Shown here: positions 4,097-13,138 of the stretch, one piece after another
Numbering within the stretch: position 1 is the stretch's first letter
How the letters are laid out: each line of letters begins with the position of its first letter
From: an uncultured Nitrososphaerales archaeon
GTDB taxonomy: Archaea > Thermoproteota > Nitrososphaeria > Nitrososphaerales > Nitrososphaeraceae
DNA length: 64,000 nucleotides
NCBI GenBank assembly: GCA_963709405.1
Contig: CAVPXM010000021.1
Coordinates: 160,001 to 224,000 of the forward strand
Direction: 5' to 3'
Translations under genes and position numbers: made by a program
Notes under the pieces: model-generated
Seen by the model: the letters and a program-made list of their open reading frames with translations, nothing else
Told to the model about the DNA's origin: nothing
The model's database searches: none

Positions 4097-5171
4097 TTAA
4101 TCATATACTAGCCTTAGGTCTTCAGAACAGGAACGAAAAGTCAAATTAATTTTATTCAGCTTAAACTTGGTACTTGATAGCCTCTGTCGTGCTACATAAA
4201 TAGCTTGTGGGGAAGAGTCGCATCCGATCCAATTTCTTGCCAACCTTGCCGCAACAACTAATGATGTCCCTGACCCACAAAAGAAATCGGCAATTAGCCC
4301 GTTAGCACAGGAAAATTGGCCAATTATCCTTTCTAACAATTGTTCATGCTTCTCTGTCTCATAACCAGTTGAATATCCATAACTCTCTACATCTAGCCAG
4401 ACGTTGTCCAGTACCTGTCCTGTTCTTGGGGGGAATCCAATACTCGGCATACTTAACTCCATCTCGTTTTCGGATAAATTCTAGCTTCTTACCTGTTTGT
4501 AGCCAATATTCTTCGAGTGGAATCTCTGGAAAGCGGCGTTCATAAATCTTATAATTCTTCGCTGCCTCTAAAGCCCTTGCTCTAGTCCATTTCCATTGGC
4601 CTCTTTCTGGCACGTATCCGAGTAGATTGTATCGCATTGTTGGTCTGTCTACATTACTCCAAAATCCCATCCATTTTGAGGGTACTGTATTCTCTGTCAT
4701 AGGTAGCGAAAACCTTGCTGAGTGATCCTTCGAATACCATAATATCGAATCGTTTGCAATATGCATTCTGTCGATGGACTTAAATTGATAAAGCAAATTC
4801 TTTCTCCTTCCCCTTTTTATTATAATTTCGTTTCGGAAGTTACTGTATCCAAATAGCTCATCCATAACTACCTTCACATAGTGTACCATATGCCAATCCA
4901 AGTGAATAAATATAGATCCTGAAGGTGATAGCAAATGTTGAATACTCTGCAGTCGGGGATACATGCTATCCAAATAGATTTTTATGGGATTCTGCCCTCT
5001 AAATGTATCATCGAATGCAAGCTCTTGACTGTTACGCGTTCTCAAAAAGTACTTATCTCTTGTTAAAAAAGGAGGGTCAATGTATACGAGATCAATTTTA
5101 TTTTCGAATCCATTTTCTATTAAATATTTCATAGCCTCAAGATTGTCGCCGTAAAAAAGAATATTCTTCAT
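4097..5171 (-). CDS. Site-specific DNA methyltransferase (N6A/N4C, beta class, Mod-like); frameshift at the G5 run near 4430
   Basis: Catalytic IYIDPPF-type motif (LVYIDPPF) in ORF 4359..5171 and SAM-binding DFFCGSGT in ORF 4097..4462; the two join as YWIPP/RTGQVLDNVW. Confidence 0.88.
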
Positions 5172-5484
5172 TGCGTTATTTCTGACTTTTGCTGCTTTTC
5201 CCAGTTTTCGGTTTACCTAAATCCCTACGTCGAGACGTGTGATAAGTGGGCATCATTTCCGATACTGATTGATTTTTATGTAAGACTTATTCATTTAGTT
5301 ACCGTTCAAACTGTGTTATCATGTCGTAATCCGAAACTACTTCATCGCTTGTACTGCACTGTAAATGGAGGAGTCCACAGAAGAGCTTACCGATTCTGAT
5401 CGCAGAAGGTCGCTTTCATCCTTCTTGGCCTCAGAATCTCGAATTTTCAGAATTATTGAATGATATAATATTACAATTATATAT

Positions 5485-6090
5485 TTGCGAAATGATCTAA
5501 CTCGAGGTAAGTTGGTAGTAATGACCGACTCGTACATGGGGATATTTATGCCCGCGGATATTTCTTCCAGAATATTGAGGTTTATTGACGGTAAGCTAGA
5601 ATTTCCAATTATAGGTGGGAATGAGATAATGGCGTCTTTTTATCTTTTCGGAAGGGATTTTGGAGTTAGTAGTGAGGAACTATTTATTGCAATTGATTTA
5701 GCAAAGAGAACCGTGAGTCAACTTACTAATGAGATAAAAGCCCTTGGCGAAACGTCTACTAAGATGAATTCCGAATCGATCCGCGAAAATTATACCCGAC
5801 GTATCTTGCAGTTGCATAGTGAACACCAATTGCAAAATATTGAAATGAATAAAAGGATTTCCGGGGACCCCACTATCTTGTCTGCATGTTTTGTGCAGCA
5901 TGTAGCATATCATCATCAACAATACTTTTTTGAGCTTTTTCCACCATTGAGAGAGAACCAAATACCTGCAGACCTCAGATCGCGATTGCAGCAAAGAATG
6001 GTCCTATTGGGATTTAACGTAAAAAGGGAAGATGCGATGTCATCGGGGGGTTCTATCAACAATTTTTTAAATTGGTTCAAGGAGCATTGA
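5485..6090 (+). CDS. Hypothetical protein (likely start ATG 5521)
   Basis: 201-aa ORF with globular composition; no recognised motif. Confidence 0.65.
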   Translation: MRNDLTRGKLVVMTDSYMGIFMPADISSRILRFIDGKLEFPIIGGNEIMASFYLFGRDFGVSSEELFIAIDLAKRTVSQLTNEIKALGETSTKMNSESIRENYTRRILQLHSEHQLQNIEMNKRISGDPTILSACFVQHVAYHHQQYFFELFPPLRENQIPADLRSRLQQRMVLLGFNVKREDAMSSGGSINNFLNWFKEH

Positions 6091-6181
6091 TTCCTCAATC
6101 AATACTAGTTCGCCAAGTAGTTCACATAAGTAAGGGTTGCCACGTTGAACCGAGATGCATGCGTGCATCATTATCTTTTCA

Positions 6182-6850
6182 TCATTTGTCGTCTTGTTCA
6201 TATTTAGCTTTAACATACTCAATGAGCTTGATCGCGTCCAATTCTTTCAAGCTAATTCTGTTAGAAGCAATATATGATCTAAATGATTCGAACTGGTTCG
6301 AATATTCTGGGCTATTATCTACTGAATAGTCAAGGATCTCGTTGTAGTTTCGTAACGGGAAGTAAAATTTCTTTGCTACCCTGGTAAGTATTTTTCTTGC
6401 ATGTTTGTCAATAATACCTCGCTTTTCAGCTAGGAATAGATTAAATCGAATGTCAATCATTGCTTCAGATTGTAATCTATAACTTCCTTCCTCAAACGTA
6501 ACGGCAACTTCATCATCAGCTGTAACTTTGCCTTTTCTATATAGATCGAAGATCTTCCCTATTCCTATCATGCCAAATCGCTCCAATTCTACCGCTCTCA
6601 ATGCTCCTAGACTTGCCGCACCTACGACCATAACATTTTTTTTGGCTACGAGTTGGTATACTTCTATTGGTGTGGGTGGATAATCTTGGAGAAACATGCC
6701 GTCAACCAAACCAACCACAGAGATGTCTGAGGATAATCCGAGTCGCAAGAGATCACCTTTTTTAGCTGGTGGCTTGTAATCGGCATTAAAAATGGCCTTC
6801 GCCTTCTCGTTACTCATACTAGGACCGAGAAAAATGATAGGTTTTCTCAT
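6182..6850 (-). CDS. tfuA: TfuA-like protein (YcaO partner in thioamidation)
   Basis: IFLGPS, PPAKKGDL, GLVDGMF, GAASLGALRAVEL, DDEVAV motifs; start overlaps the ycaO stop (ATGA). Confidence 0.93.
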   Translation of the reverse strand: MRKPIIFLGPSMSNEKAKAIFNADYKPPAKKGDLLRLGLSSDISVVGLVDGMFLQDYPPTPIEVYQLVAKKNVMVVGAASLGALRAVELERFGMIGIGKIFDLYRKGKVTADDEVAVTFEEGSYRLQSEAMIDIRFNLFLAEKRGIIDKHARKILTRVAKKFYFPLRNYNEILDYSVDNSPEYSNQFESFRSYIASNRISLKELDAIKLIEYVKAKYEQDDK

Positions 6851-8157
6851 TTCTTAAAAAATTTCCTCCCTCTCCAACCCACAACTGACTTGGTTATCTT
6901 GAATGTTTCAAGACCAGGGTACTATGGCCCGAACTACCGGAACCTTGAGTCTAGGATTTGTTAAATTTACGATTATCGCTTGGGTCAGGCCCGCCCTCCT
7001 CAGACGGTCTAAGATCAACTTTATATCATCGAGTATATCAGCATTGTAAAAACTTGTTATTTCAGAATACTTTATCTTTCTATCAGACGGAACGAATCGC
7101 CATGAACGTTTTTCATCCGTGTTCTCTTGGCTGTATTTTATCTTTCTCAGGTCGTCCCTAGCCCCTTGAATATTGGCTCGCTCTTGTTTGTGATACCTCC
7201 GTGATCGCGCGCAACAATGCAATTCGGGCATCGGGATGAGTGCCATGTCCTTCTGCTAAATATCCATAATCATGAGTAACCCATTCAACGCTTGCTGCAT
7301 TGAACGATGGAATACCTATTTCTGTTGTAATCTCCTTTACAATTAGAGATATGTTATTTCTCTTGAATATTTTGAGGAGAGTTAGTATGGGTTCAAATTT
7401 CATATCGGAAAAATCAACATCAGAAAATACACAAGACTCGTCCTTAAATTTATCAATAGTTACTGTAGGGGTGGGAAAGCCATGGGATTTCAATGCATTC
7501 GCGATATGCCTAAGGTAATAAAATGGAATTGCACTAGCACGCAATTCTGCCAAGCTTAGGGCATCTCGTTCAATCAGTTCGCATAGAGAATGACATACAG
7601 CCTCTTCCATCACATTTCCAGAAGCTAATCCATTTGTGTGATAAAATGAGAATGGATTCACAGACGGAGGCCTAGGTTCATATCTAAAAAGAGCAAGGGA
7701 GGCAGGAACCATTACTTCTTCATTGTTCAGCAAGTCAAAGCCTGATAGATAGTCCGTTTGCATATCATCTCTAAATTGGAACCTAGTCGGTTCACAGATT
7801 TGATCAGGATGAACAACTGTGTATTTCTTGGATAGTTCTTTATAACTTGATTGAATGAGATTTCGATTGTCTGTATTTGGTAATGAGGAGTATCTCTCGA
7901 TAGATTCCATTAACGCACTTGCCATAGCATGATTTCTTGTCGGACCTTTTCCACTATATACCCAGATGTAATCCTCTGTCCCTGGAACAACTGCCGAGTA
8001 ATTAGGGATTGCAAGTACATCTAATCCAGTGATGTCAGCCAATCTTGTGAGACCAATAATTTTTGATAAAGGCTTGATATTTTCTAGAGTTAGGTTAGGC
8101 GGCTGAATCCTTGATGTTCCGCTCGCCAGTCCATTTCATTCGACTTTCCAATTGCAA
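6847..8157 (-). CDS. ycaO: YcaO-family protein (TfuA-associated, thioamide-forming type); apparent frameshifts near 8130, 7170 and 6915
   Basis: RLADITGLD, SGKG, SALMESIER, TNGLASGN..EEA...ELIERDA, RAITEVSQTRA/NIQGARDD and VP/GLE motifs across the split ORFs; ends KFFKK* overlapping the tfuA ATG. Confidence 0.9.
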
Positions 8158-8260
8158 TATTTAATTGACTATTCCCTTTAGAAGCCAGCATTTATTTCTT
8201 GCCAAATATCTAAGCTATTCATTAAGATTATATATTAGAATCTTGCAATCGTTTTGCTAA

Positions 8261-8437
8261 TTGAACTCAAGACAGAGGGATGCTGAGATTATTAGCGATA
8301 TTCTGCTCAAAGCAGCGAGTGAACCGGAGTTCAGAAATCGGCTTATAAGAGAGCCTGCGGAGATTTTGAATCAATATAATATTTCAGCTGAGGCCAAAAC
8401 AGTCATCAAGAACAGCATTATTGATCTTACTCAATGA
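8261..8437 (+). CDS. 58-aa NHLP-leader-like (Os1348/nitrile-hydratase-leader clan) small protein; candidate RiPP precursor or partner
   Basis: Manual translation from TTG: MNSRQRDAEIISDILLKAASEPEFRNRLIREPAEILNQYNISAEAKTVIKNSIIDLTQ*. It fits the 'ii.kA..DpeFR.rL..dP...L..y.ls.e' pattern. TATA-like TTATATAT at about 8228. Below the ORF-track cutoff. Confidence 0.72.
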   Translation: MNSRQRDAEIISDILLKAASEPEFRNRLIREPAEILNQYNISAEAKTVIKNSIIDLTQ

Positions 8438-8763
8438 CGTATCTGGCAGCATGTTTTGAGAACCTTCTATGTTTATATCGAGAATAATTTTTTTGACTAA
8501 CGCGATAGCGGATAGAATTTAGATTTTTTCATTTGGTTTGCTAGATTCAAGTACAATGTGCCCCGCCTCTGACTCACACATAATCACAGGTAGCCATACA
8601 ACTTAGTGTATTCCTCCTAGTGCACTCTCTTTTACGGGGTTGCCTGCTCACCAATATCGAGATCCAATACGACAGTCATCAAAGTAGTCCAGTTGATGAC
8701 ATTGTAAGTAAATGCTCGAATTAGGCCAGACAATCATCTAAACGAGCTTCCAGGATATAAACA

Positions 8764-11957: not shown

Positions 11958-13138
11958 ATGTCAAGCTCAGACAACTCACAACCAGATGAATTTCGAGAAG
12001 TAGTCCCTGACAGCAACGAAGATAATTTCTCAGTTACACCGTGGGAAGTCGAGGGACATATAAATTATGACAAACTTATCGACAGATTCGGCACAGATCC
12101 TATCAGCGCTAGTATTCTCGATACTTTCAAAAGTATCACTAGCGAAATTCATCCATTGTTAAGTTTAGAATATTTTTATTCCCACCGCGACTTGGATTGG
12201 ATTTTAAACAAATACAAATCTGGCGAAAGTTTTTACCTCTACACAGGAAGAGGACCTTCCGGGATGGTGCATATGGGTCACATTATGCCATGGCTATTCT
12301 CAAAATATCTGCAAGATAAATTTAATTCAAAACTAATATTCCAGCTAACCGACGATGAAAAATTTCTTTTTAACCATGATCTTAGCCGCAAAAGATAAAT
12401 TATTTTACTCGCGAAAATATTTTGGACATAATAGCCACCGGGTTCGATCCAAGAAAGACGAAAATTCTCGTAGATACTACACACATACAGTATTTGTACC
12501 CACTCGCGATAGAAATCGCAAGACATATCACTTTTTCTACAGCAAAATCGGTCTTCGGCTTTTCACATTCTAGTAATATTGGTATGATTGGGTTTCCTCC
12601 TATTCAAGCCTCGACTTGTTTTCTTCCGTCAGTTCTCGAGGGAAAACCGACTCCCGTGCTAATTCCAGCTGCGATAGACCAAGATCCTTACTGGAGAGTA
12701 ACTAGAGATGTTGCTGTCCGAATGGGTTACTATAAACCAGCACAAATCCATAGTAAATTCATACCAGGACTGGGCGTATCGGGGAAGATGTCTTCCTCTA
12801 AACCTGATACAGCACTTTTCACAACGGATAGCCCAGAGGTTGTTGAAAAGAAAATTCTTTCTGCCTTTACTGGAGGTCAAGCGACTGTACAATTGCAACG
12901 AAAGCTTGGTGGGAATGCCAATGGTTGCCCAGTTTTCTGGTACTTGCGTTACTTTTTTGATACAGAACGAGAATCTGATGAGCGATTTTTAAAATGTAAG
13001 ATTGGTAATCTTTTATGCGGCGAATGTAAAGCAGATCTTGCAGACGAGGCTAAGTTATTTATTGCTGATTTCCAAAAGCGGAGGGAAAAAGCTAAGGATA
13101 CTGTGAAAGAATTTATGTACGACGGAGATCCATTTTGA
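11958..13138 (+). CDS. trpS: Tryptophan--tRNA ligase; apparent frameshift near 12388
   Basis: VTPWEV, YTGRGPSGMVHMGH (HIGH-like), DQDPYWR and KMSSS across ORFs 11958..12398 and 12422..13138. Confidence 0.95.

Follow-up and report, generated by a model that had tools for sequence, protein, structure and literature searches.

A conserved YcaO-TfuA module with a small NHLP-clan protein as candidate partner in ammonia-oxidising archaea free of methyl-coenzyme M reductase

YcaO enzymes phosphorylate backbone amide oxygens using ATP, and their acidic motifs bind ATP and Mg. Leader peptides of the NHLP class were reportedly first described, by Haft in 2010, beside YcaO-type cyclodehydratases. Here we describe a locus in a 64,000-nucleotide stretch of DNA (hereafter the window) from an uncultured Nitrososphaerales archaeon, in which genes for YcaO and TfuA stand head-to-head with a small open reading frame (ORF) whose 58-aa product is a candidate partner of YcaO. 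In the window, tfuA (6182-6850, reverse strand, 222 aa) is intact and overlaps ycaO (6847-8132, reverse strand), which encodes about 429 aa once three single-base insertions are set aside, and a divergent intergenic region of 128 bp (8133-8260) separates the ATG of ycaO from the TTG start of the small ORF (8261-8437, forward strand). These three genes form a conserved module of ammonia oxidisers that are free of methyl-coenzyme M reductase (MCR).

Two lines of described systems come close to this locus. The first comprises enzymes that act on cellular proteins. PMC13063428 gives MCR and the ribosomal protein uL16 as the only two cases of backbone thioamides in proteins, ascribes the latter to an E. 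coli YcaO that works outside any cluster for a peptide that is made on ribosomes and modified after translation (RiPP), and states that outside sulfidic habitats TfuA releases sulfide from a ThiS-type thiocarboxylate. The E. coli enzyme has no TfuA and belongs to another YcaO subfamily (NF040716, which gives only 32 bits here); its likeness to the archaeal system would lie in a cellular-protein target. The methanogen pair that modifies the McrA glycine (TIGR03266, NF033432; MJ1094, PDB 6pe3/6peu; 6xp8) shares with the archaeal locus the ycaO-tfuA order and the YcaO motifs, and is the best PDB match of the archaeal YcaO and TfuA by sequence and, in the case of YcaO, also by fold. The second line comprises folded precursors of the NHLP clan. 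According to PMC7726476, Os1348 of Pseudomonas sp. Os17 (PDB 6lk7) is an 85-aa folded protein of this clan that is thought to be modified by neighbouring enzymes, and its cluster is described there with GNAT, HEXXH and SagB-type genes and with no YcaO or TfuA. YcaO homologues in MCR-free ammonia-oxidising archaea have been in print since 2017 (PMC5589413), and eight YcaO/TfuA clusters are reported from Thaumarchaeota in PMC8120280. An earlier note on this DNA, made from its letters alone, had considered the target of the system uncharacterised; this holds in so far as we found, in the full texts searched, no paper naming a partner or target of the ammonia-oxidiser YcaO-TfuA, whereas the presence of YcaO-TfuA in these organisms was already published. 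Within the full texts searched, novelty extends to the partner gene and its co-occurrence with ycaO-tfuA, to the additional YcaO segment, to the model of docking and to the affinity with bacteria.

Both enzymes are readily assigned to their families. The window's TfuA scores 122.6 bits with Pfam TfuA (PF07812, E 9.6e-36; cut-off 30) and its gene adjoins ycaO, which together make it a member of that family, and YcaO matches Pfam YcaO (PF02624, cut-off 25.7) over profile positions 1-235 (E 2.9e-54, 185 bits) and 235-322 (E 8.1e-11, 42.3 bits). Among PDB sequences TfuA matches 6xp8 (E 3.1e-29) and YcaO the M. jannaschii enzyme (E 5.7e-36), and the predicted structure of an orthologous YcaO agrees with M. 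jannaschii YcaO bound to a peptide (6peu) at a Foldseek E of 2.2e-29 and a TM-score of 0.85 on the target. Two ExxER-type motifs, an NGLASGN block and a QxR...GxRDD block are invariant in 26 YcaO orthologues, as are residues E91, E94, R95, E200, E203, R204 and D205; the ExxER-type, NGLASGN and QxR...GxRDD motifs are also carried by the pieces into which the window's own ycaO is broken.

Unlike the methanogen pair, the ammonia-oxidiser proteins fall below the equivalog cut-offs, an intact YcaO orthologue reaching 274.7 bits with the McrA-glycine model TIGR03266 (cut-off 365) and the window's TfuA 208.8 bits with NF033432 (cut-off 235.2). The substrate of such a pair was not found either: a search for MCR alpha (PF02249) gave 0 matches in the source genome (4.83 Mb in 100 contigs, 91% complete) and detected both controls, M. 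jannaschii and M. acetivorans. The absence of mcrA, which the earlier note had read from the window, extends to the genome as assembled, and an archaeal amoA lies on the same contig as the module. A third difference is a helical segment of about 36 residues (approximately residues 214-250 of the orthologue), which is absent from McrA-type YcaOs and present in every YcaO compared from genomes that encode the small protein; the M. jannaschii structure has no counterpart to orthologue residues 217-263.

The 58-aa ORF is a real gene. Its homologues, of which all the named ones are titled 'hypothetical protein', align across all 58 residues with a mean column identity of 65%, and in the 16 of 23 small-protein genes that were used for codon comparison (the other 7 differ in length) the TTG start is kept in 16 of 16 and the median ratio of nonsynonymous to synonymous change (pN/pS) is 0.22 over 120 pairs. 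The protein matches no Pfam family. Profile comparison places it in the NHLP clan, as the earlier note had surmised: the family profile retrieves from the PDB nitrile hydratase alpha chains (whole-sequence E 1.5e-7 to 2e-5; best single stretch i-Evalue 0.0026) and an NHLP-family product (E 0.011), and the nitrile hydratase alpha helix motif is what it shares with NHLP/proteusin leaders (TIGR03793; PDB 8tb1, 9cjx). Unlike those precursors, it has no double-Gly site and no Cys/Ser/Thr-rich core, and the window's protein contains neither Gly nor Cys. Membership of the curated families is not reached. The window's protein scores 20.3 bits with TIGR03793 (E 3.7e-4; cut-off 50.9), a match that covers profile positions 3-36 of 77 and is followed by only 17 further residues, and 18.5 bits with the Os1348 family NF038399 (E 1.6e-3; cut-off 40). 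Across the archaeal family NF038399 is matched by 18 of 23 proteins (E at most 0.01, best 5.9e-6) and TIGR03793 by 16 of 23, all of them below threshold.

AlphaFold2 predicts a four-helix bundle for the small protein, with a predicted local distance difference test score (pLDDT) of 87. A Foldseek search of the PDB gave no match at E of 0.001 or below, the best being the proteusin precursor 8tb1 at E 3.1, and VIA-align against 48,161 chains yielded nothing beyond generic bundles of helices (Z at most 6.1); the protein is not assigned to a fold on either search. The direct comparison with Os1348 (VIA Z 5.1, root mean square deviation 2.7 over 56 residues) has a Z within the range of unrelated helical bundles. 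In the Atlas, bacterial Os1348-family and Franean1_4349-family clusters come next after the protein's own archaeal cluster, with scores below 0.9 that make them leads only.

The three genes occur together across the order. In 26 relatives the small gene is divergent from ycaO at 22 loci; at the other four it lies on a small separate contig, on another contig, 924 kb away or 1.3 kb upstream. A scan with one genome per species, in which the best 80 of 167 relatives were kept (labelled Nitrososphaeraceae, Nitrososphaera, Nitrosopolaris, other Nitrososphaerales, Thermoproteota and, once, Nitrosopumilales), found the divergent arrangement at 52 of the 67 loci that offered 2.5 kb or more of room. 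Presence and absence follow the same pattern. Among 41 relatives, the 27 that have TfuA are also those that have the small protein, and the other 14 are without either. When 151 genomes were sampled evenly from the order, TfuA turned up in 46 and the small protein in 43: both in 41 genomes, TfuA alone in 5, the small protein alone in 2 and neither in 103. Of the exceptions, two TfuA-only cases are contigs ending at ycaO; of the two small-protein-only cases, one is a genome that is 67% complete and the other a match of 17 bits. TfuA was found in 24 of 24 genomes of the same family, and the module is present in all 24 Nitrososphaeraceae genomes of each of two partly overlapping sets. AmoA is encoded in 22/23, 9/9, 11/11 and 23/23 genomes of four families, the first three of which have the module while it is present in 0/23 of the fourth. 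Since the relatives are not independent, these counts are to be read as a pattern rather than as statistics.

The remaining three TfuA-only genomes provide a natural control. They belong to one family (G068, G085 and G110; loci L139-L141), encode MCR alpha and lack amoA. In G068, the one scored with NCBIfam, YcaO reaches 492.1 bits (cut-off 365) and TfuA 270.8 bits (cut-off 235.2), which makes both McrA-type equivalogs, and the YcaOs of all three genomes are without the 36-residue segment. MCR-bearing genomes of the same order thus hold the canonical enzyme pair with neither segment nor small partner. At L139 ycaO-tfuA adjoins a NifB-like radical SAM gene. That relatives of ammonia oxidisers carry MCR is noteworthy in its own right.

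The ancestry of the YcaO was examined among 6259 relatives found in 1.84 billion cluster representatives. A FastTree phylogeny was calculated from 114 of 150 representatives (those of 370-520 aa only), 8 archaeal and 3 MCR-type sequences after removal of the segment columns. It splits, with Shimodaira-Hasegawa-like (SH-like) support of 96, into a segment-bearing half, which consists of 43 long, 8 ammonia-oxidiser and 6 short rows, and a short half, in which are found both the MCR-type sequences and an McrA-type YcaO that bears the name Methanonatronarchaeum. The archaeal ammonia-oxidiser clade has a support of 100, and nearest to it stands a bacterial clade (SH-like 96, FastTree) with the named members Cytobacillus oceanisediminis and Paraburkholderia caledonica. 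An IQ-TREE phylogeny of 54 of the 125 rows, chosen by hand, gives the same separation from the McrA type with the bacterial clade adjacent, and an approximately unbiased (AU) test rejects a clade of ammonia-oxidiser and McrA-type sequences (p 0.012, for a group named after the tree had been seen). The idea that the enzyme is a relic or derivative of the McrA type was rejected on the sub-cut-off scores, the tree and the AU test. As for the tree placement that the earlier note had called for, YcaO falls outside the McrA-type clade and beside bacterial RiPP-like clusters.

Two bacterial or metagenomic loci illustrate that neighbourhood. The sister YcaO clade has the long segment, and at L152 and L153 small proteins of 89 and 100 aa, which the archaeal profile finds at E 1.4e-6 and 7.8e-12, are encoded beside TfuA-YcaO; the one at L153 passes the NF038399 cut-off (43.6 bits against 40). 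The names Cytobacillus oceanisediminis and Paraburkholderia caledonica come from cluster records, not from these loci. L152 (1343-6566) and L153 (520-6200) encode the Os1348-family protein, TfuA, YcaO, a TP_methylase-like protein and a PhyH dioxygenase, to which L153 adds a BCS1-like AAA ATPase; the combination corresponds to no cluster type known to us. These clusters differ from the archaeal module in the C-terminal extension of their 89-100-aa small proteins and in their TP_methylase, PhyH and BCS1-like genes, and they number only two, whereas the archaeal module consists of three genes among housekeeping genes. A tblastn search of plasmids with P0257 from the sister clade gave only matches of about 27% identity, the sister clade not being among them. 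By sequence, then, the archaeal YcaO belongs not with the McrA type but with TfuA-YcaO clusters of bacteria, in which longer Os1348/NHLP-clan precursors are encoded; this suggests that the module had its origin in bacterial NHLP-type clusters.

A structural model was calculated for the intact YcaO of a same-genus relative together with the small protein of that genome, using our own unpaired alignments. The complex scores 0.70 (0.70, 0.71 and 0.69 in separate runs), the best control reaching 0.01; 58 of 80 solved complexes attained such a score, as did 2 of 110 mismatched pairs, counts that hold only roughly here because our own alignments were used. The runs share at least 98% of contacts, and the pLDDT of the partner is at least 87. 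On the side of YcaO the confidently predicted interface consists of residues 218-249 and 440, that is, of the additional segment (helix 219-231, the loop that follows it and a short helix). The small protein thus probably docks on the segment that distinguishes this YcaO, and the model supports binding. Conservation at the interface was also considered, and no claim is made from it, 12 of 20 conserved residues falling in the 27-residue interface where about 9 are expected by chance.

We interpret the locus, with a probability of roughly 0.55, as an intact and vertically conserved thioamidation module in which the small protein is the cognate recognition partner of YcaO and most probably its substrate. 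The role of recognition partner follows from the predicted docking on a segment that McrA-type YcaOs lack; the role of substrate is favoured by the precursor-like bacterial homologues and by the precedent of Os1348. From family knowledge, YcaO would activate a backbone amide with ATP, and by analogy TfuA would deliver sulfide taken from a ThiS-type thiocarboxylate whose gene stands elsewhere in the genome. Three ThiS-family genes were found in the genome, all on contigs other than that of the module, which agrees with the earlier note's statement that the window has no ThiS. The NHLP-like bundle would dock on the extra YcaO helix, thereby taking the place of a leader-recognition element, and the small protein would be a thioamidated mini-protein rather than a secreted RiPP. 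We infer binding, from the model only, as well as thioamidation and the modified residue. A thioamitide-like cluster, with a variable core and with protease, exporter or tailoring genes by YcaO-TfuA, is not what is seen within about 6 kb: Pfam and neighbour annotation give no protease or exporter over that distance, and conservation of the small protein extends from end to end, with no variable core.

Several observations weigh against this interpretation. The segment is present in 43 of 114 full-length YcaO representatives, so it is not specific to ammonia oxidisers, and a homologous small protein was found at only 2 of 80 bacterial or metagenomic loci searched in the sister-clade scan. The small gene is unlinked at 15 of the 67 loci, 11 of them labelled Nitrososphaera sp., and also in the complete or near-complete genomes G019 and G008, and, the relatives not being independent, a single gain and a single loss may be all that lies behind the presence pattern. 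The case for binding comes from one structure model with unpaired alignments. In that model, moreover, the small protein is docked as a folded bundle and is not threaded into the enzyme, its last helix packing on YcaO and not into the active site. The bacterial small proteins run about 25-30 residues beyond the C-terminal end of the archaeal ones, where a core is expected, and the last 6-9 residues differ between archaeal families.

The last of these points bear on the question of substrate or subunit. Lack of the C-terminal extension and docking as a folded bundle make it a live alternative that the small protein is a coreless RiPP leader domain which has become a permanent subunit and activates YcaO-TfuA or aims it, in trans, at another, unlinked protein or peptide of the cell; we regard this as possible, if on balance unlikely. 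On the one hand, the archaeal proteins stop short of their Os1348-type homologues by just the stretch in question, their full-length conservation (65% mean column identity, pN/pS 0.22) resembles that of a structural subunit, the extreme C-terminus varies between families, the modelled bundle packs on the YcaO helix, and the surrounding 6 kb offer no protease or exporter. On the other hand, no candidate second substrate was identified, and in a MAFFT alternative the archaeal and bacterial C-terminal motifs can be aligned with a gap of 18 residues between, so that the archaeal protein would retain a possible site. No natural system with a separately encoded leader is known to us, no search for one having been made.

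It is also conceivable, but quite improbable, that the small ORF, though conserved beside ycaO, has a function of another kind, such as that of a regulator, and that YcaO-TfuA alone modifies a cellular protein, in the manner of the MCR and uL16 cases. The only archaeal precedent is the thioamidation of cellular enzymes (PMC13063428), the small gene is unlinked in the genus Nitrososphaera, and the NHLP-family scores lie under the curated cut-offs. Against a mere neighbour stand the close match of presence and absence across the 151 genomes, a complex model far above its controls on a segment that tracks with the small protein, and the homologous small proteins that adjoin bacterial YcaOs of the same clade.

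As assembled, ycaO consists of four frame pieces (8095-8160, with the ATG at 8132; 7158-8135; 6908-7255; 6847-6921), broken by extra single bases at 6917, 7179 and 8124. The sites were checked over 5400-8600 with Logan contigs of three DNA runs from three studies (X1, X2 and X6) and one RNA run (X15). The base at 7179 is missing from the contigs of all four runs; that at 8124 is missing in X1, X2 and X6, the site lying outside the coverage of X15; and that at 6917 is missing in X2 and X15, the X1 contigs breaking at 6917/6918 and X6 having no coverage. Only these three sites on 5400-8600 show an indel common to more than one run; the polishing suggested by the earlier note, carried out with contigs of public runs, removes the extra bases wherever there is coverage. 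Deleting the three bases in silico gives a single 429-aa frame from the ATG at 8132 to the TGA of an ATGA overlap with tfuA at 6847-6850. The overlap is present as the earlier note had described it, although it becomes the stop of ycaO only once the three breaks are read through; it is kept in 13 of 26 relatives, and ycaO is one frame of 426-450 aa in all 26.

When the proteins of a short-read relative were aligned to 1-14.4 kb, breaks appeared in the methylase, within a G6 run, and in a Trp/Tyr-type tRNA synthetase, within an A4 run, and two of the three ycaO break sites lie within the word GCTCGC, which occurs only four times on that strand of the window and suggests a systematic basecalling error. 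The split tRNA synthetase, together with independent contigs free of the extra bases, points to errors of assembly and not to decay of the gene. We conclude that the breaks in ycaO stem from assembly or basecalling and that the population carries an intact gene. A true ycaO pseudogene, with a module in decay in this strain, is very improbable. In its favour are the three breaks, which crowd into a 1.3-kb ycaO while tfuA and the 201-aa ORF beyond it have none, and the nature of the evidence from the runs, which consists of contigs and not of raw reads of the source sample. Against it, contigs at least 99% identical from three studies lack the extra bases (X1 for 7179 and 8124 only), the synthetase and the methylase are split in the same manner, and GCTCGC at two of the sites points to basecalling. 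With the module conserved, ycaO intact in the population and the small ORF placed in the NHLP clan, the earlier note is supported as regards a three-gene module, in which the small protein is a candidate substrate.

Single-base indels recur in this assembly roughly every 3 kb (for example at 4416-4432 and 12389-12395, besides 6917, 7179 and 8124). An N6/N4 DNA methylase gene lies 2 kb away, and the GCTCGC coincidence hints at a basecalling error linked to methylation. In the relative G020 (C60:154022-154669, locus L049) the TfuA match has 7 stops (2 TGA, 4 TAG, 1 TAA) while ycaO and the small gene are open; the tfuA stops there represent either real decay or a poor stretch of assembly.

The surroundings of the module were annotated over 1-14.4 kb of the window. 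They encode Hsp70, GrpE, the DNA methylase, the 201-aa ORF, the beta and alpha subunits of phenylalanyl-tRNA synthetase, the class I Trp/Tyr-type tRNA synthetase and a cytidylyltransferase, which bears out the housekeeping setting described in the earlier note; its statement that the window has no transporter holds for this annotated neighbourhood only. The source genome has one ycaO locus and one copy of the small gene. In the intergenic region a pattern scan found, at the level of motifs only, TATA-like boxes 33 nt before the TTG of the small ORF (TTATATAT) and 33 nt before the ATG of ycaO (ATTAAATA). The start of the small gene and the ycaO match stand some 135 bp apart in the window, and 335-375 bp apart in relatives of the same genus (L024, L025, L027-L029), so that the window is without roughly 200-240 bp of intergenic DNA found in its kin. 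Contigs of the RNA run X15 span tfuA, ycaO and the small ORF at 95-99% identity; as the library may contain DNA and the contigs have neither strand nor ends, no expression is claimed. The 201-aa ORF (5485-6090, forward strand) is convergent with tfuA and finds a match neither in Pfam nor in NCBIfam; with 60-75% identity it is kept beside tfuA in 6 of 6 same-genus relatives and at 0 of 20 other loci. At the Nitrososphaera sp. loci where the small gene is unlinked from ycaO-tfuA (L096, L102, L112, L125, L131, L135; G019:C1:1117937-1118104) it is divergent from a conserved membrane protein of 388-394 aa.

What would such a module mean for ammonia-oxidising archaea? Tentatively, and with rather low confidence, three of the four sampled AmoA families may have reduced a bacterial NHLP-type pathway to a housekeeping module, in which a former leader, now a stand-alone subunit docked on a YcaO helix of its own, would license thioamidation of a core cellular protein, so that thioamidated proteins would form a third class besides MCR and uL16; or the thioamidated mini-protein itself would serve in the manner of a cofactor, and a role for it in handling copper, on which these organisms depend, is pure speculation. 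The analysis provides a specific partner and a specific docking element that can be tested, the MCR-bearing relatives with a canonical enzyme, no segment and no partner serve as the natural control, and cultured Nitrososphaera strains make such testing feasible. Since the module is present in all 24 sampled Nitrososphaeraceae, which are abundant soil nitrifiers, the proposed modification probably matters for their physiology.

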